Shown piece by piece: positions 1 through 33,508 of a stretch of DNA of 33,508 bases (the stretch's first letter is position 1; every line of letters starts with the position of its first letter). Location of the stretch: the IMG/VR virus record IMGVR_UViG_648276643_000011; one strand, 5' to 3'. The DNA is from a virus (Duplodnaviria; Heunggongvirae; Uroviricota; Caudoviricetes). Made by a program: the position numbers and the translations under genes. The notes below the pieces were generated by a model. It was not told the origin of the DNA. It made no database searches and saw nothing but the letters and a program-made list of their open reading frames with translations.

Positions 1-1002
1 TTACCCTCTATTGTCAAAAGGGTTCAATTCAACAGCAGCCTCTAAATGACCTGGAGCAAAATGCGCATAACGCATAGTCATTTTTATATCGCTATGCCCC
101 AGTATTTTTTGCAACACAAGAATATTTCCGCCCCGCATCATAAAATGACTGGCAAACGTGTGACGTAGCACATGAGTTAATTGCCCATCAGGAAGCTCGA
201 TCTTCGCTCTCTTAATTGCAGCGTCAAAAGCCTCATAACATGGTGAAAATAGCGCTCCTCGTTTTTTAGGAAGCATAGCTTGCAATTGAGGTGAAATCGG
301 TACAGTGCGGTTCTTCTTTCCTTTAGTTTTAACAAATGTGATTCGACCGGGCAGTACTTGAGATTGCTTTAATCCTTCTGCTTCACTCCACCGAGCACCA
401 GTCGCAAGCCCAATACGGACAACAACCCCCAAATCTTTATTCCGTGACTCATCACACGCAATCAGAAGGCGTTCAATCTCATCTACATACAGAAACGCCA
501 GTTCCTTTTCTTCCTCACGAAACTTGCGAATACCAGTCAGGGGGTTTTCACCAGACCACTCCCCAAGGCGCTTCAGTTCGGCAAAAACAGCATGTAGATA
601 TGACTGCTCGCGATTAACGGTTGCTTCACTAAGTTTTTTCTTCCCCTTGGGATTCCATTCTCCTGATAGCCTTCTTTCCCGATAAGTAGCAAACATATTT
701 TTGTCAAACTGAGAAGCAAATGGATCTCCCAGCCTGGAACAAATCGCCTCAAGTTTGACTTTGCGCTCTGCACCAGAGGACAAGGTTTTACCGTACATCT
801 CAAACCAACGAGCAATCAACTCAGAAAGACGAGGACCAGAACCATCTTGAAACTCGTCTCCAACTCTACTATTCATTAAACGGCGCTCATAAGAGAGCGC
901 CTCACTTTTTGTCGCAAACTGTTTACGAATGCGTTTTCCCGATGCCCCGTAGGGATAACATTCGCAAAGCCATTTACCTGATGGAATCTTACGAACCGAC
1001 AT
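1..1002 (-). CDS. int: Phage integrase, tyrosine recombinase (P2 Int-like)
   Basis: 333 aa ORF; C-terminal catalytic region with HxxR and terminal Tyr context (LRHTFASHFMMRGG ... MTMRYAHF) typical of tyrosine recombinases; alignable by eye to P2 Int; first gene at prophage end. Confidence 0.9.
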   Translation of the reverse strand: MSVRKIPSGKWLCECYPYGASGKRIRKQFATKSEALSYERRLMNSRVGDEFQDGSGPRLSELIARWFEMYGKTLSSGAERKVKLEAICSRLGDPFASQFDKNMFATYRERRLSGEWNPKGKKKLSEATVNREQSYLHAVFAELKRLGEWSGENPLTGIRKFREEEKELAFLYVDEIERLLIACDESRNKDLGVVVRIGLATGARWSEAEGLKQSQVLPGRITFVKTKGKKNRTVPISPQLQAMLPKKRGALFSPCYEAFDAAIKRAKIELPDGQLTHVLRHTFASHFMMRGGNILVLQKILGHSDIKMTMRYAHFAPGHLEAAVELNPFDNRG

Positions 1003-9174: not shown

Positions 9175-10134
9175 ATGAAAATTTGTATCGACGACGGCTC
9201 CACCAACATCAAGCTGGCATGGACTGAGAACGGCGAACGCCGCAACGCCATCAGCCCGAACAGCTTCAAGTCGGAATGGTCTGCGCCGTTCGGTGGCACG
9301 CAGCCCGCGAACTACATGCTTGATGGCGTGCGCTATGGTTTTGATCCTGTCAGCGATCGCTTTGTCCAGACGACCGACACGCAATACCAATACAGCGATG
9401 TGAATGTCATTGCCATTCATCACGCGCTGGTCAAATCAGGCATCACGCCACAGGAGGTGGATGTGGTTGTCACCCTGCCACTGAGCGAGTATTTCGACAC
9501 AAACGCACAGCCGGACATGGCCAACATCAACCGCAAAAAAGCGAACGTTATGCGCCCGGTGGAGTACCAGAACGGCAAAGCATTCACTATCCGTAACGTA
9601 CGGGTTATGCCTGAATCTATTCCGGCTGGCTTTAAAGCACTGGCTGACATGAGTCCGTTTGAATCCCTGCTGATTGTGGATTTAGGCGGAACCACGCTGG
9701 ATGTGGCAAAGGTTCAGGGACAACTGGCAGGTATCAGCCAGGTGTTTTGCGATCCACACGTAGGCGTTTCCCTGATGGCCGATGCAGTACTGTCGGTGAT
9801 GGCCACTAACGGTATGCGTACCAGTCACCACATCGCCAATACCATTATCGAACATCGCCATGATGAAGCTTGGCTGCGCCAGCACATCCACAATGACGCG
9901 CATTACGCCAGCCTGATGGCGGTTATTCGTGAAAAGGAAGAAACACTGAAACAACGCGTGATCCGCGCGCTGGCGGGTTTTTCGGGTTACGGGCGGGTGA
10001 TGGTTGTCGGTGGCGGAGCGGAGATTGTGGCACCCGCTATCCGCGAAGCCTGCGGGGTTAATGCGACTTTCATCGCGGACGGGGTGCCACAGTTTGCTCT
10101 GGTTAATGGGCTGTACGCAATGGACAAGGAGTAA
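9175..10134 (+). CDS. parM: ParM/StbA-family actin-like ATPase
   Basis: 319 aa; N-terminus MKICIDDGSTNIKLAW matches ParM phosphate-1 motif; further ParM-like blocks (YSDVNV.A.HHAL, MPESIPAG, LI.DLGGTTLD, GGGAE) alignable by eye to plasmid R1 ParM (from memory); RBS AAGGA. Confidence 0.8.
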   Translation: MKICIDDGSTNIKLAWTENGERRNAISPNSFKSEWSAPFGGTQPANYMLDGVRYGFDPVSDRFVQTTDTQYQYSDVNVIAIHHALVKSGITPQEVDVVVTLPLSEYFDTNAQPDMANINRKKANVMRPVEYQNGKAFTIRNVRVMPESIPAGFKALADMSPFESLLIVDLGGTTLDVAKVQGQLAGISQVFCDPHVGVSLMADAVLSVMATNGMRTSHHIANTIIEHRHDEAWLRQHIHNDAHYASLMAVIREKEETLKQRVIRALAGFSGYGRVMVVGGGAEIVAPAIREACGVNATFIADGVPQFALVNGLYAMDKE

Positions 10135-23261: not shown

Positions 23262-25919
23262 ATGAGCACGAAATTTAAAACCGTTATCACTACTGCCGGA
23301 GCCGCGAAGCTGGCAGCCGCCACTGTCCCCGGCGGGAAAAAAGTAACTCTGTCTGCAATGGCCGTGGGTGACGGTAATGGCAAATTGCCGGTGCCGGATG
23401 CCGGTCAGACGAAACTGGTGCATGAGGTCTGGCGTCACGCTCTGAATAAAGTCAGCGTGGATAACAAGAATAAAAACTATATCGTGGCTGAACTGGTTGT
23501 ACCGCCAGAAGTGGGCGGCTTCTGGATGCGTGAGCTGGGTCTGTATGACGATGCCGGAACACTGATTGCGGTCGCTAACATGGCGGAAAGCTATAAACCT
23601 GAACTCGCTGAAGGCTCCGGGCGCGCGCAGACCTGCCGCATGGTTATTATTGTCAGCAACGTGGCGTCCGTTGAGCTGAGTATTGATGCCAGCACAGTGA
23701 TGGCGACGCAGGATTACGTCGATGACAAAATCGCAGAGCATGAGCAATCCCGCCGCCATCCTGACGCCACGCTGACAGAAAAAGGTTTTACTCAGTTAAG
23801 TAGCGCAACAAACAGCACCAGTGAAGAGCTGGCGGCAACGCCAAAGGCAGTAAAAGCAGCCTATGACAATGCTGAAAAACGTATGCAGAAAGACCAGAAC
23901 GGTGACGATATTCCAGATAAGGGCGCTTTTCTGGACAATGTTGGCGTTACCAGCCTGACGTTTATGAAAAACAATGGCGAAATGCCGCTTGATGCTGACT
24001 TGAATACATTTGGTCCCGTTAAGGCTTATCTTGGCATCTGGTCTAAAGCAACATCCACCAACGCAACACTGGAGAAAAATTTCCCGGAAGATAATGCTGT
24101 CGGTGTGCTTGAGGTTTTTGCAGCTGGCAATTTTGCAGGCACGCAACGTTTTATCACGAGAGACGGCAATGTATACATGCGTAAACTCGCCAATAAGTGG
24201 AATGGCACTGATGGTCCGTGGGGCGTATGGCGTCACACTCAATCAGCTACCCGCCCTTTGAGTACGACTATAGACCTGAATACGCTTGGAGCCGCTGAGC
24301 ATCTTGGTTTATGGCGTAACAGTAGCTCGGCTATAGCTTCATATGAACGCAATTATCCAGAGGAAGGCGGCTTTGCTCAGGGGACGCTTGAGATCCTCGA
24401 AGGCGGGAATTATGGAAGAACGCAACGTTATACCACTCGTCGTGGGAATATGTACGTTCGCTGCCTTGCGGCAAGCTGGGATGCATCAAATCCGCAGTGG
24501 GAACCGTGGTTAAGAGTCGGTCATCAGTCAGAGAGCCGTTATTACGAAGGTGATTTGAATGTTCTAACCGACCCCGGTATTTACAGTGTTACAGGAAAGG
24601 CGACAAACGGTCCGATGCTGGACGCTGCTGGGGCGACATTGCTTGGGATACTGGAAGTAATCAGGCGTTTTGATGGTGTATCTGTCTGGCAGCGTTACAC
24701 AACCACAGGAAAATCAGAAACCACACAGGGGCGCACTTTTGAGCGCGTCTACGCCGGGAGCACATGGACCGAATGGCGAGAAGTGTATAACTCCTTTTCG
24801 TTGCCCCTGAATATGGGGATCGGTGGCGCAGTGGCAAAACTCACCAGCCTGGACTGGCAGACCTACGATTTTGTGCCGGGCAGTCTGATAACCGTTCGGC
24901 TTGATAACATGACCAATATTCCCGACGGTATGGACTGGGGCGTCATTGATGGCAACCTGATAAACATCGCTGTTGGTCCGAGTGATGATTCCGGTACGGG
25001 GCGCTCAATGCATGTATGGCGCAGCACTGTAAGTAAAGCGAATTACCGCTTTTTTATGGTTCGCATTTCAGGAAATCCGGGAAGCCGCACGATTACGACA
25101 AGACGTGTGCCAATTATCGACGAAGCTCAGACATGGGCGGCGAAACAGACATTCAGCGGTGGTCTTTCTGGCGAACTATCCGGCAATGCTGCTACAGCAA
25201 CAAAGCTGAAAACGGCAAGGACAATTAACGGCGTAAAATTTGACGGCTCGGCAAATATTGAAGCGTTTCCGCCAGGTGTTCCGCTGCCGTGGCCATCAGA
25301 TACTGTGCCGTCTGGTTACGCCCTGATGCAGGGACAGACTTTTGATAAATCTGCATACCCGAAACTTGCAGTCGCTTATCCGTCAGGCGTGATCCCGGAT
25401 ATGCGTGGCTGGACAATCAAGGGCAAACCCGCCAGTGGTCGGGCCGTATTGTCTCTGGAACAGGACGGCATTAAATCGCACACCCACAGTGCCAGCGCAT
25501 CCAGTACGGATTTGGGTACGAAAACCACATCGTCGTTTGATTACGGTACTAAATCAACGAATAACACAGGTGCACATACCCACAATGTATCTGGTACTGC
25601 AAATAGTGCTGGCGCACATACTCATACCGTTCCATTAAGGAGACCAAACAGTGGCGGTATGAATTTCGACTGGCTGGATGGTGCATCAAGTGGCACGGTG
25701 GTGGGGAATGGAACTGTGCCTTCTTCTGGCGCACATACCCACTCAGTATCAGGTACCGCTACAAGTGCTGGGGCACATGCACACACTGTTGGTATTGGCG
25801 CTCATACGCACTCTGTTGCGATTGGTTCACATGGACACACCATCACCGTTAACGCTGCTGGTAACGCGGAAAACACCGTTAAAAACATCGCATTTAATTA
25901 TATTGTGAGGCTTGCATAA
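23262..25919 (+). CDS. H: Tail fibre protein H with internal tandem domain triplication and His-rich GAH(T)H repeats near the C-terminus
   Basis: 885 aa; conserved P2 gpH-like N-terminus; three about 85 aa tandem repeats (residues about 235-500); six GAHTH/GAHAH/GSHGH motifs in the last 130 aa. Confidence 0.9.
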
Positions 25920-26536
25920 TGGCATTCAGAATGAGTGAACAATCACGTACTGTAAAAATTTATAACCTGCTGGCCGGAACTAATGAGTTTATTGGTGAAG
26001 GTGACGCATATATTCCACCTCATACAGGGCTGCCAGCCAATTCTACAGATATCGCCCCACCGGAAATTCCTGCTGGCTTTGTGGCAGTTTTTAACAGTGA
26101 AAATGAATCGTGGAATATTGTTGAAGACCATCGTGGTAAAACGGTCTATGACGTGGCATCGGGGGACGCGTTGTTTATTTCTGAACCCGGACCGCTACCA
26201 GAGAATGTCACCTGGTTGTCGCCAGCAGGGGAGTATCAGAAGTGGGACGGCGTATCCTGGGTGAAGGATGAGGAAGCAGAAAAACTGTTTCGGATACGGG
26301 AAGCGGAAGAGAAAAAGGCAAGGTTGATCCAGGAAGCAACAGATAACATCGCAATTCTGCAGGATGCAGTTAATCTTGAAATAGCAACAAACGAGGAAAA
26401 TTCACAACTGGATTCCTGGAGAAAATACAGAGTATTAGTGAGTAGAATTGACACCAGTACAGCTCCGGATATCGTATGGCCAGAGCTGATGAATCAGGGT
26501 TATGTGCGGGAGGACGAGCAGATAACTTCAGACTGA
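25919..26536 (+). CDS. G: Tail fibre assembly chaperone (gpG-like)
   Basis: 205 aa; ATG overlaps H stop (TAATG); position after H. Confidence 0.8.
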
Positions 26537-27063
26537 AATTTAGTGATGAATGTTGAATCATCTGGAATATCATGCAATACCAATGCATGAGCACCTATTG
26601 TGACATTGTTTCCTATACGCACTTTGCCACCAAGAATGGTGGCATTACAACCAATGGTCACATTATGTCCTATAACAATATCCATATCATTAAAATCACC
26701 ACGCAGCCCAATAGTTACCCCTGGTTTTATTGAACAATTTTCACCGATTGTTACTTTGTGACCGATAACAACACTGTTGAGATAAGAAATATCAAAGCCT
26801 TTCCCTATATTTACAGTTAAAGGGACTGTTACATTATATTTATCAAGAATGAAACGTTCTATTTTCCCCGCAATCTTCCGACAGTATCCGCCTTTATCAA
26901 AAAGGTATTTGGCTATGCGCCACCAAAATAAATAACGAACTCTTCTATGTTTTATTGCGCGAACAATTGCCTTTCGCCAGGAGAAAGGACGCTCGCTACC
27001 GATTACTTCATAGTGAATACAATCTTTAAGTTCATTAATATTCATATCTCTATTATTCAGCAT
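26500..27063 (-). CDS. Hexapeptide-repeat (left-handed beta-helix) acyl/acetyltransferase at the Z/fun variable locus
   Basis: 187 aa; consecutive hexapeptide repeats [21 protein letters not shown] ... [34 protein letters not shown]; about 35 percent GC; convergently overlaps the 3' end of G by 37 bp. Confidence 0.75.
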
Positions 27064-27233: not shown

Positions 27234-27728
27234 TCAGAACAGCCCTTTAACTGAACTGGCCGCGCTGTTAAGGGATGATGTCACTTTATCTTTGAAGCCG
27301 GACAGCATATCGCTGAACGATGAGGATTGCAGGCGCTCCCGCAAATCCTCATCACAGCGTTCAAGGGTCAGTGAAAATTCTATCTTTTTCGCCTTACCGT
27401 AGCGATCAAACTCGGAACGGGTCGTATTCGTTTCGGTCAGGACATACATGCCGTAAATCTGCCCGACGCCATCAATAAGAGGCCAGGGGCGTCCTGTATA
27501 CGCCTGCGTGGTCAGCAGCGACAGCGACACTTCGCCACCTGTAATTTCAGGATAAAGCACACCAGAAAGAACGATGCGATCATCACCTGCACCGATATAC
27601 TGCCAGCTTGCTGAACGGTTAACGCGTTCATTTTTCACATGCCGCCAGCTTTTGTTTTGCTGTAACTGCTGATGCGGCAGCGTGCGCAGCTCAAAAACAA
27701 ACATGCCGTAGATCATCATCATGGCCAT
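27234..27728 (-). CDS. U: Tail protein U
   Basis: 164 aa; follows tape measure as in P2; similarity to P2 gpU. Confidence 0.85.
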   Translation of the reverse strand: MAMMMIYGMFVFELRTLPHQQLQQNKSWRHVKNERVNRSASWQYIGAGDDRIVLSGVLYPEITGGEVSLSLLTTQAYTGRPWPLIDGVGQIYGMYVLTETNTTRSEFDRYGKAKKIEFSLTLERCDEDLRERLQSSSFSDMLSGFKDKVTSSLNSAASSVKGLF

Positions 27729-27734
27729 GACTCC

Positions 27735-30578
27735 TCAATCTTTATCGTAAAAACTGCCACGCCCGGCACGGGCGCGCCGTTCCATTTCTGCCCTGACCAT
27801 TTCACCGACCAGTTTCGCCAGTTCGCGGGGATTCTGCGTAACAACGTTATGCAGATGAACATGAATTTCACCACCAAATCCGGAGGCAACAGGCTCCCGG
27901 TTACGGGAAGTTACAGGAACTGATGCCACTGGAGATCGTATGGCCTCCGCCACCGGGCGGGAGCTGGCCGCAACAACAGGGACCAGCGCCGGAGGCAGCG
28001 GAGCCGGGACCACGGGTGTGATATTAATTGCGGGGGCAGGCTTACTGACCTGCGCAATCTTCCGCTCCTGCCACTCTCCACGAACAGCAAGTGCGCGGGG
28101 CAGGTTCTTAAAGACAATATCGCCGGGGCCAATGCGTTTTTTCGTCTCATCAACCAGCTTACCTGTGTTATCAGCAATTTTGCTGAGTCTGCGTAGCGTC
28201 CCGGTATTGCTGTCTGTGAGCGGTTTGTTGTCTTTGGGTTTATTACCTCCGGTGCCATTGCCATTTTCCACAGGCTTCGGCGGATTGATTTTCGCCAGGT
28301 CACCCTGAAGCAAGGCAACCTTGTCCTGAAGAATGGCCGCACGCTGTGCGTCTTCGATTTTCTTGCGCGCTCTTTCCGCTTCATCCGGAAGGACGCCAAG
28401 TTTTTCAAGTATCCACGCCAGCGTATCCAGTAGCATTTTTGCAGGTGTCAGAACAAGCTGTAACGCACCGCCAAGAACGTTACCGAATATCTCGCCAGCA
28501 CTGGTACATTTATCCAGCGTTTCCTTGCTGGACTCCATCGGTGACAGCAGCGATTTAAACCAGTTAAACACCTGGCTGATCCCGCTTCCGATTGTGTCAA
28601 AAACAGGACCAAACCGTTCAAAGGTTTCGCGCAACGGGGTCAGCCTTTCCATAATCCCGCTGAACACCCCGGCAAAAAATGCCCTGATGGGATCCCAGTA
28701 TTTCCAGATAAGAACGGCAGCTCCGGCAAGCGCAGCCACGATAAGACCAACCGGACTGAACAGCGCCCCGATAGCGCCTCCCAGTAAAGAAACGGAACCC
28801 GTCACCATTCCCCACAGCGCAGGCAACACCCTGACGACATTCATTGACCGGGTAAGAATGTCAAAACCAAGACGCAGGGTGGCCAGCTTCCCGTAAAGCA
28901 CCCCAATAACCAGCGACAACGAGCCAATCGTTGCAGTCATTGCCAGCAACGCACCGCCTGCTATCAGTAGCTGGCGCGTCAGTACCGGATGGGCCTGCGC
29001 CAGCGAGGTGATTTTTTCAAGCACCCGCGTGAGCCACTGCGTGACAGAACGCAGCGGACCGTCAACCAGATCACTGATGCGAATACGAAGACCTTCCCAT
29101 GCGCTGTCGAGATTTTTCAGGTCCCCATCAAGATTATCGGCCATTACTTTTGCGACGCGATCGGCCTCTCCCCTTGCCCCCTGCAATTCTCTGGTCAGTT
29201 TTTGCAGCTCTCCTGAACCAGCCGCCGCAACAAGCGTCTGCAAACCAACGAACGCCTCTTCTCCGGCGATGTCCTTGAAGAAGGAAACCTGGTCCACCTG
29301 TCCGTATTTTTGTGTCGCCTTATAGAGATCAAGCAGCACATCCTCCATCGGGCGCATTTTGCCTCTGGCGTCAGCAACTGACACCCCCAGCTCTTTCAGT
29401 GCATCAGCCGCAGCTTTTGGCGGTGATGCAAGGCGGGACAGACTTGCGCGCATGGCCGTACCAGCATCGCTTCCGCGAAGACCATTATTGGCAAGCATCC
29501 CGGCCATGGCTGCCGCTTCTTCAAGACTGATACCAAGTTTTGCGGCAACCGGACCGGTATACTTCATGGTTTCGCCCAGCGCGCGTAAATCAGTATTGGT
29601 CCGGGTGAATGCTGCTGTCAGCGTATCGCCAACACGGTCCATTTGATCGGCTGTCAGGTTGAACTGTGTGAGGATATTGGAGCCTATATCAGCCGTCTCG
29701 CCGAGTTCGACGCCACCTGCCAGCGCCATATTAAGAACACCGGGCAATGCGGCCTGAATGGCCTGCGGAGTAAAACCAGCCATTGCCAGAAAGCTCTGCC
29801 CACTGGCGGCATCACTCGCAGTAAACTGTGTTTCAGAGCCAAGTTTTAACGCCTGCTCACGCAGCGCCTTAAACTGCGGGCTGTTTTTGTCGATTCGCGT
29901 CAGTGCCTGAACACGGGACATCTCTTTGCCGAACCCGATCGCAGGCTGCAAAAAACGCCCGGCAGCATAGCCGCCCGCCGTTGCCGCACCAATTGCCAGC
30001 GCACCACCTGTTTTCAGTTTTCCCGCTGTTTCCTGCGCGCGCGAATACCGCTCACGCGCCCGTGTTACACGCGCAAGCGCCTGCCGTTCGCGTTCAAGCT
30101 GGTTGTTGTACTGTTCGGTGCGTCTGATGGCCTGCTGGATGGTGTTATCGCTGCCTGTCAGGGAAATGCCGTGGCGTTTCAGCTCTCCGCCAAGCTCCCG
30201 CATTTTCTGAATTTCCCGTGTGCGCGATTCATTCAGGCGTTCAAGCCGGGTGCTTAACTGCTGCATCAGCTTTTGTTGTTTTTCGCTGAGCACTGTACCC
30301 GTGCGTTGTAACTGATTAAGGGCGTTAAGCTGGCGTCGTGCTTTCAATATGCCAGCATCCGCTTTACTGACAGCGTCACGGGCGCGCTCAAATGAACGCG
30401 CCTGACGCTCGAGATTTTTGATCGCCCCCTGCGTTCGCTGGATGGAGTCACCAAACTGCCCCATCAGGCGGCGGGCGTTTTCGGCAGGCCGGGTCAGCCT
30501 GTCAACGGCGCTGAAAGCGACCCGGATGTCAAGAGTCTTCATTGTCTGCATTCCCGCTGCGAAGTGCCGCCCGCTCAC
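27735..30578 (-). CDS. T: Tail tape measure protein T
   Basis: 947 aa, alpha-helical N-terminal half with coiled-coil character, central hydrophobic/glycine-rich segments. Confidence 0.9.
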   Translation of the reverse strand: MSGRHFAAGMQTMKTLDIRVAFSAVDRLTRPAENARRLMGQFGDSIQRTQGAIKNLERQARSFERARDAVSKADAGILKARRQLNALNQLQRTGTVLSEKQQKLMQQLSTRLERLNESRTREIQKMRELGGELKRHGISLTGSDNTIQQAIRRTEQYNNQLERERQALARVTRARERYSRAQETAGKLKTGGALAIGAATAGGYAAGRFLQPAIGFGKEMSRVQALTRIDKNSPQFKALREQALKLGSETQFTASDAASGQSFLAMAGFTPQAIQAALPGVLNMALAGGVELGETADIGSNILTQFNLTADQMDRVGDTLTAAFTRTNTDLRALGETMKYTGPVAAKLGISLEEAAAMAGMLANNGLRGSDAGTAMRASLSRLASPPKAAADALKELGVSVADARGKMRPMEDVLLDLYKATQKYGQVDQVSFFKDIAGEEAFVGLQTLVAAAGSGELQKLTRELQGARGEADRVAKVMADNLDGDLKNLDSAWEGLRIRISDLVDGPLRSVTQWLTRVLEKITSLAQAHPVLTRQLLIAGGALLAMTATIGSLSLVIGVLYGKLATLRLGFDILTRSMNVVRVLPALWGMVTGSVSLLGGAIGALFSPVGLIVAALAGAAVLIWKYWDPIRAFFAGVFSGIMERLTPLRETFERFGPVFDTIGSGISQVFNWFKSLLSPMESSKETLDKCTSAGEIFGNVLGGALQLVLTPAKMLLDTLAWILEKLGVLPDEAERARKKIEDAQRAAILQDKVALLQGDLAKINPPKPVENGNGTGGNKPKDNKPLTDSNTGTLRRLSKIADNTGKLVDETKKRIGPGDIVFKNLPRALAVRGEWQERKIAQVSKPAPAINITPVVPAPLPPALVPVVAASSRPVAEAIRSPVASVPVTSRNREPVASGFGGEIHVHLHNVVTQNPRELAKLVGEMVRAEMERRARAGRGSFYDKD

Positions 30579-30797
30579 GCCAGCTAACCACTTCGCCGGG
30601 CGTCATCATGAAGATTTCGGCGGGCGACCAGTTAAAAATGGCGGCAATATCCGCCACCAGATCTTCGATGTGCTCAAAGCACACCAGGGTGATTACGCTG
30701 CCGTCTCCTGCACGCTCTTCGCGCCAGAGTCTGGCTCGCTCATAAAATTTACAGCCACAGCGCACAACTGAATAAAATCGCGTGACGACATTTTTTT
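30529..30797 (-). other. E' extension reached by programmed -1 frameshift from E (tail assembly chaperone E+E')
   Basis: The -1 frame opens directly after a TAA at 30796-30798 and runs to 30529, overlapping the start of T; slippery A7 tract (plus-strand T7 at 30791-30797) inside E. Confidence 0.6.
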
Positions 30798-31058
30798 AAT
30801 CATCACTTCATCCAGTCGTGGCGAGGTCACGCGAGGCAACAGCGTGAACATGGTATCCGCTTTCAGATTCAGCACATCAGACAGCGACAGACCACGCAGG
30901 GATCCAGCCTGCTCAATAGCCCCGGTGATCTCCACATACGTGATTTTTTCGCCACCACGCTCAATTGGTCGGGTCAGTTTTACGCCACGCTCGCTGGTTT
31001 CTTTCACAGTGTCAGCAACGACCGTATTTTCGGTATCGATGTTTTTCGTCACTTTCAT
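30693..31058 (-). CDS. E: Tail assembly chaperone E
   Basis: Blocks GSLRGLSL and LLPRVTSPRL parallel P2 gpE; the true start may be an internal codon because the 121 aa ORF is longer than P2 E. Confidence 0.75.
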   Translation of the reverse strand: MKVTKNIDTENTVVADTVKETSERGVKLTRPIERGGEKITYVEITGAIEQAGSLRGLSLSDVLNLKADTMFTLLPRVTSPRLDEVMIKKMSSRDFIQLCAVAVNFMSEPDSGAKSVQETAA

Positions 31059-31112
31059 CAGGAAACTCCTTTCAGTCAGAGGCGACGCACTGCGCCGCCT
31101 GCATATTACTTA

Positions 31113-31625
31113 TCAGCCAAGCCCGAGCGCGGAACGGATGCGATCGGGCACAATGTCCTTGCCGTCCTTCCGGTAAATGAAGTTCAGCAGGTCAATCTCC
31201 CACAACGGGCGATCGTTAACACTCAGCTTGTAGTAGGTGTTTTTAATGGCGTAAGTGTGTGATGTGGCTTCGCCCTGTTTGGCTTCCCCCATATCAATTT
31301 CCGTCACACGTCCGCGCATTTCGACTTCATACAGGTCGCTTTCATCATCGGTGTAGTATTCACCCGCAAAACGCAGTAGCGTGCCGTCAATCGTGCCGCC
31401 ATACTTCAGGAACAGCTCACGAACTGCGCCCCCCATGACAAAGCTCGCATCAAGCGCGGAGTCGTCCAGACCGAGATCAATACTTACCGCCCCCATCATG
31501 CCACCACCCCGGTAGCTGTCGGTTTTGCGCGTCAGTTTAGGCAGGGTGACGGACGTCACCTTACCCACTTCGTTTTCACCATCCACAAACAGCGTAAAAA
31601 AGCGAAGATGTTTTGGTACAGCCAT
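31113..31625 (-). CDS. FII: Tail tube protein FII
   Basis: 170 aa; size and position after sheath; by-eye match to P2 FII. Confidence 0.9.
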   Translation of the reverse strand: MAVPKHLRFFTLFVDGENEVGKVTSVTLPKLTRKTDSYRGGGMMGAVSIDLGLDDSALDASFVMGGAVRELFLKYGGTIDGTLLRFAGEYYTDDESDLYEVEMRGRVTEIDMGEAKQGEATSHTYAIKNTYYKLSVNDRPLWEIDLLNFIYRKDGKDIVPDRIRSALGLG

Positions 31626-32809
31626 CAGGCACCTCCCAGCACCGCAAATGCGGGACCAAAGAATTCATCAGTAAACGACTGGTAAAGCTCCATGTCTTCC
31701 AGCGGAGGAACGGGCGTATATTTGTAGCGAATACGCACACGCCCCTGACGTAAATTCGTGGTGCTGTTATCCACGATGTCATACCAGCACTCCGCGCCAA
31801 TCAGTTTCCCGGCAGTAACCAGTGAATCCAGTTTTGCCCTGATGGCACTGATAACATCCTTCACGTTCGCAGGCGTCAGTGGACTGTCGATGGTTTCAAA
31901 CTGCGCTTCCGCAATTGAATCAGCCAGCACCTGTGCAGTTCGGGTATACACCTCAAAGATGTAGGCGTTCGTTTCCGGTGTGCGGTTGCCCCAGAAGCGG
32001 AACCCGTTGCGACGAATAATGGTCGTGATTTCTTTGTTGTTGAGGCTGTTGGCATCGCTGTCTTCGGCCTGCAACGACCAGAACACATGCCTGGACATCC
32101 CCAGCACATTTTTAACCGGAACATTGGACAGTGATTTGTGCCATCCCTGCTCATGGTCAATGTACGCACGAAGGCCGCACGCATAGGCAGGCGCGGGGAA
32201 CGTTTCGTTTTTGCCACTTTTCGGGTTGTAGGCGATGAAGTCCGGCCATAAGAGCATCACCTCACGTTCATTGAATTTCTGGCGGTAGGTAATCGCCTCA
32301 GCCATCGTGTTACAGCCGTGACATGAGGCATACACAAACGCGCGCAGTTTACCCGCAATCACGCACAGGGATTTTGTTACCGCCTCCGTATCCAGCTCCG
32401 GCGCGGCCAGAATACGCGGACGGTATCCGATGCTTTCATCCTGCTCTGCAACAAGCAGCGCATACATCCCCGTATAGCTGCCGTCAGATTCAGAACCACC
32501 GATAACCAGTTGATCCTGCGTTTTTCCGTCTTCTTCTTTGTGTTCAGCCACGCGAACGACGATCACCTTTGTGCTCACCTGGTCTGCGATGGCCTTAAGC
32601 GCACGATAAAGCGTCCCCGTTGTTCCGCATTTTCCCAGCACGTCATTGACGCGGGTCAGCAGTGTGGGCTTGTTCAGCGGGAACAGCTCCGCGTCCGCAT
32701 CATCCGCCATTGCCACGATACCGATAACACTGGAATCAACATCATTAATCGCTGTTACCAGGTCGGTACTTTCCGTAACACGGGCACCATGAAAACGAGT
32801 TTCACTCAT
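31625..32809 (-). CDS. FI: Tail sheath protein FI
   Basis: 394 aa; strong by-eye identity to P2 FI (DADAE.FPLNKP, KLRAF.Y, YRQ.F, WPDF, EQGWHK.LSNV, IRR.GFRFWGNRT, NYTRTAQV, YTPVPPLE). Confidence 0.9.
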   Translation of the reverse strand: MSETRFHGARVTESTDLVTAINDVDSSVIGIVAMADDADAELFPLNKPTLLTRVNDVLGKCGTTGTLYRALKAIADQVSTKVIVVRVAEHKEEDGKTQDQLVIGGSESDGSYTGMYALLVAEQDESIGYRPRILAAPELDTEAVTKSLCVIAGKLRAFVYASCHGCNTMAEAITYRQKFNEREVMLLWPDFIAYNPKSGKNETFPAPAYACGLRAYIDHEQGWHKSLSNVPVKNVLGMSRHVFWSLQAEDSDANSLNNKEITTIIRRNGFRFWGNRTPETNAYIFEVYTRTAQVLADSIAEAQFETIDSPLTPANVKDVISAIRAKLDSLVTAGKLIGAECWYDIVDNSTTNLRQGRVRIRYKYTPVPPLEDMELYQSFTDEFFGPAFAVLGGA

Positions 32810-32966
32810 AGCTTCAGCCCCTTGTATCCGTTAAATGATTCGGCAACAATCATCACCCACCACGCGCGTAATCTCACCCCTGCGCCGTTCTCCCGACCCG
32901 GCGACAACAAAAAGCAGTAACCCCCTCCGCACGCACATGCGACCATGCCGCACAGGGAGGGAACAG

Positions 32967-33234
32967 ATGACCGATACCACCATGCAATTGCTCAGTCAGG
33001 GCACAGACCCCGTGAAAATGCCGGATTTTGATATTCTCGCGGAGGGTAAAACGCTGTCAGGCGTGGCAGAGCGCCTGATGAGCCTGTCACTGACCGACAA
33101 CCGGGGATTTGAGGCGGACCAGCTCACCATCACGCTGGATGATGCGGATGGTCAGTTGCAGCTACCGCCACGGGGCGCGCGCCTGACGGTTCTCATTGGC
33201 TGGAAAGGAGAACCGCTGACAGAAAAAGGCACTT
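32967..33234 (+). pseudogene. D: Tail protein D, 5' fragment only (about 88 codons), interrupted by IS30
   Basis: MTDTTMQLLSQGTDPV ... LTDNRGFEADQL ... LDDADGQ ... GWKGEPLTEKG matches the P2 gpD N-terminus; RBS GGGAGGG upstream; homology ends where the IS30 terminal repeat begins. Coordinates plus or minus 1 nt. Confidence 0.8.
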
Positions 33235-33508
33235 GTAGATTCAATTGGTCAACGCAACAGTTATGTGAAAACATGGGGTTGCGGAGGTTTTTTGAATGAG
33301 ACGAACATTTACAGCAGAGGAAAAAGCCTCTGTTTTTGAACTATGGAAGAACGGAACAGGCTTCAGTGAAATAGCGAATATCCTGGGTTCAAAACCCGGA
33401 ACGATCTTCACTATGTTAAGGGATACTGGCGGCATAAAACCCCATGAGCGTAAGCGGGCTGTAGCTCACCTGACACTGTCTGAGCGCGAGGAGATACGAG
33501 CTGGTTTG
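33234..33508 (+). mobile_element. IS30 insertion sequence, left end (continues beyond window)
   Basis: Terminal inverted repeat TGTAGATTCAATTGGTCAACGCAACAG followed by the IS30 transposase start. Coordinates plus or minus 1 nt. Confidence 0.85.
33296..33508 (+). CDS. insI: IS30 transposase, N-terminal portion (partial at window end)
   Basis: MRRTFTAEEKASVFELWKNGTGFSEIANILGSKPGTIFTMLRDTGGIKPHERKRAVAHLTLSEREEIRAGL is the IS30 transposase N-terminus as recalled from memory. Start plus or minus 1 nt. Confidence 0.85.
   Translation, partial: MRRTFTAEEKASVFELWKNGTGFSEIANILGSKPGTIFTMLRDTGGIKPHERKRAVAHLTLSEREEIRAGL

Follow-up and report, generated by a model that had tools for sequence, protein, structure and literature searches.

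Long tail fibres that end in a needle of iron-coordinating histidines are best described in phage T4. The tip of T4 gp37 (PDB 2XGF) has seven coordinated irons, and H929/H931 are essential (PMC6957217). Mutagenesis of T4 located functionally critical tip residues, needed for LPS/OmpC binding, in segment 932-965; the critical residues other than histidine are I933, N937, G938, G940, G942, G943, S947, and Y949 (PMC6957217). Duplications of a small gp37 domain can widen the host range of T4 (Tetart et al. 1996, as cited in PMC6957217 and PMC3157838). The C-terminus of g37 together with g38 is held to derive from a temperate-phage pool of lambda-type Stf/Tfa loci (PMC3157838), and the HxH iron site has also been reported in pyocin fibres and in the P2 spike.

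The locus described here combines such a tip with a P2-type shaft. It lies in a 33,508-nt stretch of viral DNA (the window; features in the table), where the order of genes is V-W-J-I-H-tfa, with Baseplate_J and Tail_P2_I recognized by Pfam 5' of H. The 885-aa ORF is the intact gpH tail fibre of a P88/P2-family E. coli prophage. An earlier note, made from the letters alone, had called it a tail fibre; the Pfam matches Phage_tail_fib, Phage_fiber_2, and Collar and the location between gpI and the Tfa gene, a P2-type late region as in the RefSeq annotation of a near-identical prophage, confirm this. Among the matches listed, six E. coli chromosomes carry the H gene at 100% nt identity. Nucleotides 1-1952 of the gene are 92-95% identical to Peduovirus H genes, the relatives including Yersinia phage vB_YpM_22, Peduovirus P24E6b, and PhiR44. 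What the note had observed is real and its reading was essentially right: gpH is an ordinary, well-understood mosaic phage fibre, very probably a trimeric, modular one belonging to a temperate myovirus of the P88/P2 family that is integrated in E. coli. The tail operon (U to FI) lies on the opposite strand; rearrangement damage as its cause was rejected, the same layout being found in isolated P88/PhiR44-type phages, and a search for inverted repeats flanking the operon found none.

Features of the H-tfa locus (positions in the window; residues of gpH)
Feature	Residues	Position	Strand	Basis or remark
Gene H (gpH), 885-aa tail fibre		23262..25919	+	ORF; identical to RefSeq WP_000104716.1; PHROG tail-fibre families
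N-terminal baseplate-attachment domain of P2-type fibres	1-151	23262..23714	+	PF12571 Phage_tail_fib; 92-95% nt identity to Peduovirus H
Phage_fiber_2 repeat, rod segment	170-210	23769..23891	+	PF03406, E 8.5e-22
Knob domain 1	246-337	23997..24272	+
Knob domain 2	338-430	24273..24551	+
Knob domain 3, diverged copy	431-520	24552..24821	+	hhalign to unit 1; AF2 strand pattern
Fourth knob-like domain	521-622	24822..25127	+	By fold alone; E. coli alleles hardly differ here
Conserved linker	636-665	25167..25256	+	Mosaic junction, Peduovirus shaft / gp37-type tip
Collar domain of gp37-type tip	666-735	25257..25466	+	PF07484 Collar; T4 gp37 alignment
Ascending needle strand, HxH 1-3	736-788	25467..25625	+	Aligned to T4
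DNA repeat copy 1, His boxes 2-3		25569..25631	+	Left lambdoid stf homology block ends at 25582
Head (distal tip) cassette, putative receptor-contact region	789-822	25626..25727	+	Hypervariable
DNA repeat copy 2, His boxes 4-5		25728..25790	+	Right lambdoid stf homology block resumes at 25734
Descending needle strand, HxH 4-7, conserved C-terminus	823-885	25728..25916	+	T4 alignment
tfa, tail-fibre assembly chaperone		25919..26536	+	PF02413 Caudo_TAP, E 1.6e-39

By alignment, residues 653-885 and the crystallized T4 gp37 fragment are directly homologous, a relationship beyond analogy. They match residues 16-242 of the 2xgf_A chain in phmmer (E 4.1e-84), and BLASTP gives 60% identity to T4 gp37 over 250 aa (E 8e-81). 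The collar, within which Pfam places PF07484 at aa 672-719 (E 1.3e-10), is ~90% identical to T4 gp37 811-878. The likeness to the T4 metal sites that the note had drawn is true homology. All seven HxH pairs (7/7) are in register with the seven iron sites of T4: H740/742, H772/774, and H786/788 align with T4 H883/885, H915/917, and H929/931 on the way up the needle, and H825/827, H839/841, H848/850, and H857/859 with T4 H966/968, 980/982, 989/991, and 998/1000 on the way down. Six Gly-Ala-His-x-His motifs had been counted in the last 130 residues. The number holds for the last 116 residues as six G(A/S)HxH, of which five are strict G-A-H-x-H (starting at aa 770, 784, 823, 837, and 846) and one is G-S-H-G-H (aa 855); the seventh HxH is K-S-H-T-H (aa 738-744). 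All 14 histidines (14/14) of the last 233 aa fall in the seven pairs, as compared with a mean of 0.77 and a maximum of 5 HxH in 20,000 shuffles; the first 652 aa contain 8 histidines and zero HxH. Exactly seven HxH are present in 112 of 123 homologous tips. Iron binding and a T4-like trimer geometry are expected of the gpH tip by extension from T4.

The proximal part of the protein is of P2 type. PF12571 is matched over 150/150 positions (E 1e-57), and the rod region, aa 167-233, aligns to the Mu tail fibre S structures (PDB 8ju3, 5yvq), the Phage_fiber_2 repeat being common to both fibres. The note had seen a three-fold repeat of about 85 aa with a shared motif. Three units do exist, with DLN starts at aa 246, 338, and 431, but at the sequence level only the first two closely resemble each other, the third having diverged; each is ~92 aa long, and TQR(F/Y).TR.GN.Y.R is present only in units 1 and 2. 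The Smith-Waterman score of unit 1 versus unit 2 is 180, against 26 +/- 4.6 in shuffles (z = 33), while pairwise comparison of unit 3 to units 1 and 2 gives no significance (z 0.2 and 1.3). Profile-profile comparison by hhalign connects unit 3 to unit 1 (probability 91%, E 1e-6, 75 columns, in register) and to unit 2 (probability 74%), and unit 3 has the same strand pattern in the AF2 model. Unit 4 has no sequence similarity to units 1-3 detectable by hhalign; modelled alone (AF2, Foldseek), it belongs to the same knob fold family. The models, which are of monomers and of moderate confidence (pLDDT 77-78, with a pTM of 0.37 for the four-domain model), suggest four tandem knob domains, three arising by duplication and the fourth related by fold only. 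The top Foldseek matches of the knob-region model are 5efv, 6cl6, and 6cl5; matches of the four-domain model to beta-propeller lectins (probability 0.4-0.8, TM <0.2) were discarded as an artefact of repeated four-stranded sheets. Pfam and NCBIfam have no match over aa 236-640, and NCBIfam has none for the fibre or Tfa. NCBI names the homologues "pyocin knob domain-containing protein". Tandem Repeats Finder returned nothing relevant on the gene; in their DNA, the protein repeats have drifted too far apart. Both repeat systems, knobs and His boxes, are found in related fibres, so that their absence there, which the note would have counted against its reading, is not what is seen.

Shaft and tip meet at the linker, where DNA identity to the P2-like allele NC_070906 stops (gene nt 1967, ~aa 655). 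The tfa start codon and the stop codon of H have one base in common (TAATG). Tfa, 28% identical to T4 gp38 over 178 aa (E 3e-19), is a predicted chaperone of the Tfa/gp38 type, on which the tip may depend as in T4. The distal fibre, tfa, and an acetyltransferase gene match at 93.6% a phage with a different N-terminus. The acetyltransferase (ORF 26500-27063), of the hexapeptide type, moves together with the distal fibre and tfa, the three forming a single cassette shared between myoviruses whose backbones are unrelated.

The DNA encoding the His motifs is itself repeated, and the note took it for a substrate of recombinational host-range switching. This is supported in part, between alleles more than within the gene. 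DNA homology to other stf alleles breaks and resumes at the two flagged His boxes, forming blocks shared with lambdoid stf alleles (25268-25582 and 25734-26483) with exact runs of up to 65 nt; tip and tfa DNA occurs in 3924 of 5426 complete E. coli genomes (72%) plus 638 phage records, and other alleles bear gp37_C or Gp34_trimer tips on this same shaft. Such mosaic patterns, rather than observed events, point to recombination. A recent transfer of the tip from T4 was rejected, the DNA identity being just 68-76%. It could be argued that the two 63-nt copies recombine with each other, an in-frame duplication or deletion of 53 codons shifting the host range: they are in-frame direct repeats with a spacing of 159 nt, Tetart et al. 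1996 (as cited above) offer a precedent in T4, and tips with 8 HxH (1/123) or 5-6 HxH (10/123) exist. This is quite unlikely. Over their 63 nt the copies agree at only 78% of positions, and exact runs reach no more than 12 nt in register, or 13 nt when the whole tip is considered. They match at 19/21, 19/21, and 11/21 of the first, second, and third codon positions, which marks a conserved protein motif and not a recent DNA duplication; the DNA is alike because the protein is conserved. Were the copies to recombine into a deletion, the head and two iron sites would also be lost, and the great majority of tips keep seven HxH, their lengths varying in the head loops and not in the number of His boxes. 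Judged by these matches, the internal repeat is a poor intragenic recombination substrate. That H is merely the relic of a defective prophage, its fibre function lost, is unlikely. A near-identical prophage in strain 631 does have frameshifted and internal-stop pseudogenes, as well as an 801-nt gpD-like gene (a short gpD) followed by an unrelated YecA-family gene. However, every baseplate, tail, and head ORF within the window is intact, as are H and tfa, H is 99-100% conserved across at least 14 records, and plaque-forming isolated relatives (PhiR44_2, P88 family) share the layout.

Which part of the fibre sets specificity is the other point on which readings differ. The note had chosen the distal region, and comparison supports a probable role for it, with the correction that loops, not histidines, would make the contact. 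The head, 34 residues between HxH 3 and HxH 4 and equivalent to T4 gp37 932-965, is the sole hypervariable part of the tip: among 96 homologous tips it has a mean identity of 20% in 49 variants of 12-51 aa, whereas its flanks are 90-94% identical; the descending strand has a mean identity of 94% among homologues. By analogy to T4 (PMC6957217) the histidines would be buried structural metal ligands and the loops from HxH 3 to HxH 4 would contact the receptor. Of the T4-critical residues other than histidine only 2/8, N937 and G940, are kept (gpH N796 and G799; BLASTP), so these residues do not point to a particular receptor; since the head loops differ from those of T4, it is probably a different one. 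T4's own set of OmpC/LPS contact residues is not kept in gpH by BLASTP, a result that touches specificity and not family membership. Alternatively, the chief determinant could be the knobs, which might for instance bind glycans on the cell surface, with the tip then being mainly a conserved folding or secondary-binding module. Knob-like domains are known in the literature from saccharide-binding tail proteins, and units 1 and 3 vary, independently of one another, from 41% to 95% among alleles in which unit 4 is 98-100% identical. We consider this improbable: no knob approaches the variability of the head, the T4 residues equivalent to the head are needed for LPS/OmpC binding (PMC6957217), and whole tips are swapped while the knob shaft is unchanged. 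A combined scheme, in which knobs 1 and 3 (possibly glycan-binding) and the head are two independently evolving determinants and the acetyltransferase modifies the surface structure recognized by the fibre, is quite unlikely; if true, the fibre and a receptor-masking enzyme would move as a matched pair.

In the preferred reading, a mosaic fibre with its receptor-contact loops in the head, the P2-type N-terminal domain anchors the fibre to the baseplate, and a short rod followed by the four tandem knobs forms the shaft. The linker joins the shaft to a tip of the T4 gp37/lambda Stf type, consisting of collar, needle, and head. Each chain would run up the needle (HxH 1-3), build the head at its distal end (aa 789-822), and return (HxH 4-7). 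As in T4, six imidazoles per HxH site would surround one buried octahedral Fe(II) in the trimer, and seven such ions stacked on the needle axis would keep the three chains in register and stiffened, leaving the head loops, and not the histidines, to touch the receptor. Folding of the tip would need the Tfa/gp38-type chaperone encoded directly 3' and translationally coupled. Homologous recombination with the numerous related stf/tfa loci of E. coli prophages would swap modules, acting at the linker and in the conserved stretches on either side of the head.

The discovery value is little, as every flagged feature has been described elsewhere: T4 gp37, lambda Stf, and Burkholderia phage fibres have the HxH iron needle, R-pyocins and Phi11 have the knobs, and Tetart and colleagues linked a small gp37 domain to changes of host range in T4. 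The practical value is modest. The fibre illustrates cleanly how a P2-type shaft and a gp37-type tip are joined in nature at a defined linker, and its head cassette of 34 residues, with His boxes on both sides, makes for a layout suited to retargeted P2-, pyocin-, and phage-derived particles.

Among known systems, the distal long tail fibre of Shigella phage JK23 (T-even type) is 57% identical to gpH over the four-knob region and shares the NAATATKL linker motif with it, but there the linker precedes the knobs and the C-terminus is not a gp37-type needle; Pfam found nothing on that C-terminus. The R1/R2 pyocin fibres (6CL5, 6CL6, 6CU2) and the Phi11 RBP tower (5EFV), the top structural matches of the gpH knobs, likewise consist of tandem duplicated beta-rich domains of ~85-100 aa, and this group shares with gpH an N-terminal domain for attachment, P2-like in type, as well as a shaft that holds an HxH iron site. 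They differ in having two knobs instead of four, in sequence (13-21% identity), and in ending in a lectin-fold foot rather than a gp37-type needle and head. Burkholderia phage E094 gp23, whose relatives include the fibre of the P2-like phage phiX216, has gp34- and gp37-like segments, seven C-terminal HxH, and a downstream Tfa; it comes from another host genus, and its likeness to gp37 is seen via HHpred only, as against 60% identity in gpH (PMC8174754). Lambda Stf/Tfa shares the tip and chaperone module (65.6% aa identity of gpH to lambda Stf), and stfR/tfaR and stfQ/tfaQ of the K-12 cryptic prophages are 81-92% identical in nucleotide sequence in the flanks. Lambdoid siphovirus side fibres have another N-terminus and another head cassette, and the K-12 stf loci adjoin the Pin invertase where the gpH locus adjoins the acetyltransferase. 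From T4, gpH differs in carrying its tip on a P2-type shaft and not on a T-even distal half-fibre, in the divergent head loops with a two-residue insertion, and in that gp57A is not known in its prophage. The two tips share the order collar-needle-head, the HxH register, and a gp38-type chaperone gene downstream, and their C-terminal 45 residues are nearly identical.

The window represents an E. coli prophage of the P2 family. Upstream of its H gene, which encodes the tail fibre gpH, lie genes whose products have Pfam Baseplate_J and Tail_P2_I domains; downstream is a Caudo_TAP (Tfa) gene, tfa, whose start codon shares one base with the H stop codon (TAATG). This Tfa is 28% identical to the T4 fibre assembly chaperone gp38 (E 3e-19). 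Six complete E. coli chromosomes carry H with 100% identity, annotated in RefSeq as WP_000104716.1, 'phage tail-collar fiber domain-containing protein', and the adjacent tail genes U and T match their counterparts in P88/PhiR44-type phages (genus Xuanwuvirus) at 98% identity. All features of H belong to well-described families, of which the protein itself is an uncharacterised member. In the identical region of E. coli strain 631, RefSeq also annotates a ParM-like plasmid segregation gene (window 9175-10134, +), followed by a partition/stability gene, between replication gene A and the portal gene.

The last 233 residues of H, the tip (aa 653-885), contain 14 histidines, all within seven HxH pairs; in 20,000 shuffles the mean number of HxH was 0.77 and the maximum five. 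The C-terminal cluster reported in an earlier note as six GAHxH motifs is real, with a corrected composition of five GAHxH, one GSHGH and one KSHTH. The resemblance to T4 gp37 that was pointed out there is true homology: the tip matches the crystallised gp37 tip (2XGF) with an E-value of 4e-84 and 60% identity to gp37 800-1026, and each of the seven pairs has its aligned counterpart in T4, at H883, 915, 929, 966, 980, 989 and 998. In gp37 seven iron ions lie along the needle at these sites, and H929 and H931 are essential (PMC6957217); an HxH octahedral Fe site is also found in pyocin fibres and the P2 spike (Buth et al. 2018, PMC6116203). Exactly seven HxH are present in 112 of 123 homologous tips. 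On this homology with T4, from which we infer iron binding, the tip is an iron needle of the gp37/Stf type, bearing a hypervariable head.

That the distal region sets specificity, as the earlier note proposed, is supported by comparison, with the caveat that head loops rather than histidines would be responsible. In an alignment of 96 non-redundant tips (query and T4 included), identity to the query collapses between HxH 3 and HxH 4 (Table), where 49 distinct sequences of 12-51 residues occur. This segment aligns as the counterpart of the T4 gp37 head, where residues required for LPS/OmpC binding were located by mutagenesis (PMC6957217). Since only 2 of the 8 non-His residues among these are conserved in H, its receptor probably differs from that of T4 and cannot be named from sequence. 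The histidines, by the same comparison with T4, would be structural. Overall, the original observation is confirmed with small corrections and its interpretation supported.

Table. Features of the H locus, the tip and the prophage right end (tip identities are means against the query)
Feature	Position	Strand	Remarks
H	23262-25919	+	ORF, 885 aa
Collar and stem	aa 666-769		90% identity
Ascending needle, HxH 2-3	aa 770-788		78% identity
Head, between HxH 3 and HxH 4	aa 789-822		20% identity
Descending needle	aa 823-885		94% identity
Hexapeptide-repeat acetyltransferase	26500-27063	-	187 aa; low-GC patch (0.43)
Tail operon	27234-32809	-	gpU, tape measure, E/E', tube FII, sheath FI
Diverged right end	33235-33508		L003 (strain 631) 29974 onwards

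The motif DNA, suggested earlier as a recombination substrate, does contain two 63-nt copies (25569-25631 and 25728-25790), but they are 78% identical with a longest exact run of 12-13 nt, and matches number 38/42 at codon positions 1 and 2 and 11/21 at position 3, the pattern that selection on the peptide motif would yield. Because of this identity and pattern the repeat would be a weak intragenic substrate. DNA homology with Qin- and Rac-type stf genes covers 25268-25582 (92%) and 25734-26483, ending in His box 2 and restarting in His box 4, the two places flagged, and the flanks hold exact runs of 25-65 nt. Host-range change is therefore more likely to proceed by cassette exchange between alleles via the conserved flanks. 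Small duplications, which are reported to change host range in T4 (Tetart et al. 1996, as cited in PMC6957217 and PMC3157838), are a possible minor route.

The shaft was described as a three-fold repeat, and three consecutive units do begin with DLN (aa 246, 338 and 431), but the copies are uneven. Units 1 and 2 are clearly homologous by sequence (local score 180; shuffles 26 +/- 4.6; z = 33). Unit 3 gave no significant pairwise alignment with either and came into register only by profile alignment (hhalign, 14-19 homologues per unit; U1-U3 probability 91%, E 1e-6; U2-U3 74%). Unit 4 (aa 521-622) showed no sequence similarity to units 1-3 in profile comparison. Foldseek matched an AlphaFold2 model of aa 236-640 (24-sequence alignment, pLDDT 77) best to the Phi11 receptor-binding protein (5EFV) and to the pyocin fibres R2 (6CL6) and R1 (6CL5). 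Buth et al. (2018, PMC6116203) count this same group among the relatives of the pyocin 'knob', which they describe as a module of ~83 residues, trimeric and beta-rich, occurring in tandem and of duplication origin. On these grounds the shaft is modelled as four knob-like domains, three recognisable by sequence (units 1 and 2 as close copies, unit 3 as a diverged one) and unit 4 by fold only; the label that NCBI gives to homologues is 'pyocin knob domain-containing protein'. In close E. coli alleles units 1 and 3 vary independently of one another (41% to 95% identity) and unit 4 is constant (98-100%), which leaves room for a secondary, unproven binding role of the kind suggested for pyocin Knob2 by Buth et al.

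The acetyltransferase gene is convergent with tfa, overlapping its 3' end by 37 nt. The product is CysE/EpsC/WcaB-like, scoring under every NCBIfam cut-off, and its PHROG family is without known function. It is absent from P88-type phages with the same adjacent tail genes, and could be a receptor- or surface-modifying moron.

The tail operon runs opposite to the upstream H/tfa and the downstream gpD-like ORF (32835-33299, +), unlike P2-like phage NC_070906, in which all three are collinear. Damage was set aside as an explanation: this layout is shared by the isolated phage PhiR44_2 and by the P88 family, so the orientation looks like a lineage feature. No inverted repeats flanking the operon were found in the window. 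Strain 631 is 99.99% identical over 3262-33234, beyond which the two sequences part within the gpD-like gene; in strain 631 this gene is just 801 nt long and has a YecA-family gene after it. Judged from these sequences, the right end of the prophage is not the same in all hosts, and in some it may be degraded.

H is itself a mosaic. Nucleotides 1-1952/1967 (aa 1 to ~655) are 92-95% identical to H genes of many Peduoviridae whose C-termini are unrelated (gp37_C or Gp34_trimer types), the junction lying within a conserved linker. Conversely, the unrelated myovirus vB_EcoM-613R2 differs at the N-terminus and shares aa 172-885, tfa and the acetyltransferase (93.6% nt identity). Tip homologues form >2000 protein clusters, and 638 phage records contain the tip, among them lambda Stf (65.6%) and T4-type phages. 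DNA of the tip and tfa together has matches in 3924 of 5426 complete E. coli genomes, among them K-12 stfR/tfaR and, in other strains, the stfQ/tfaQ loci. Downstream of the lambdoid stfQ/tfaQ-type and stfR/tfaR loci, which have the tip flanks in common with H, lie the Pin invertases pinQ and pinR (L006 2842-3432 and L007 4806-5396); no invertase takes that position in the P2-type locus of the window. A Burkholderia phage fibre likewise combines gp34-like and gp37-like parts with seven HxH motifs (PMC8174754). The 'large distal tail fiber subunit' (P0053) of the T-even-type Shigella phage JK23 is 57% identical over the four-knob region (23967-25181), and T4 gp37 matches the tip, so each half of the distal fibre has its own relative among virulent T-even phages. 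According to the literature, this temperate-phage pool is the source of the T4 g37 C-terminus and of g38 (PMC3157838).
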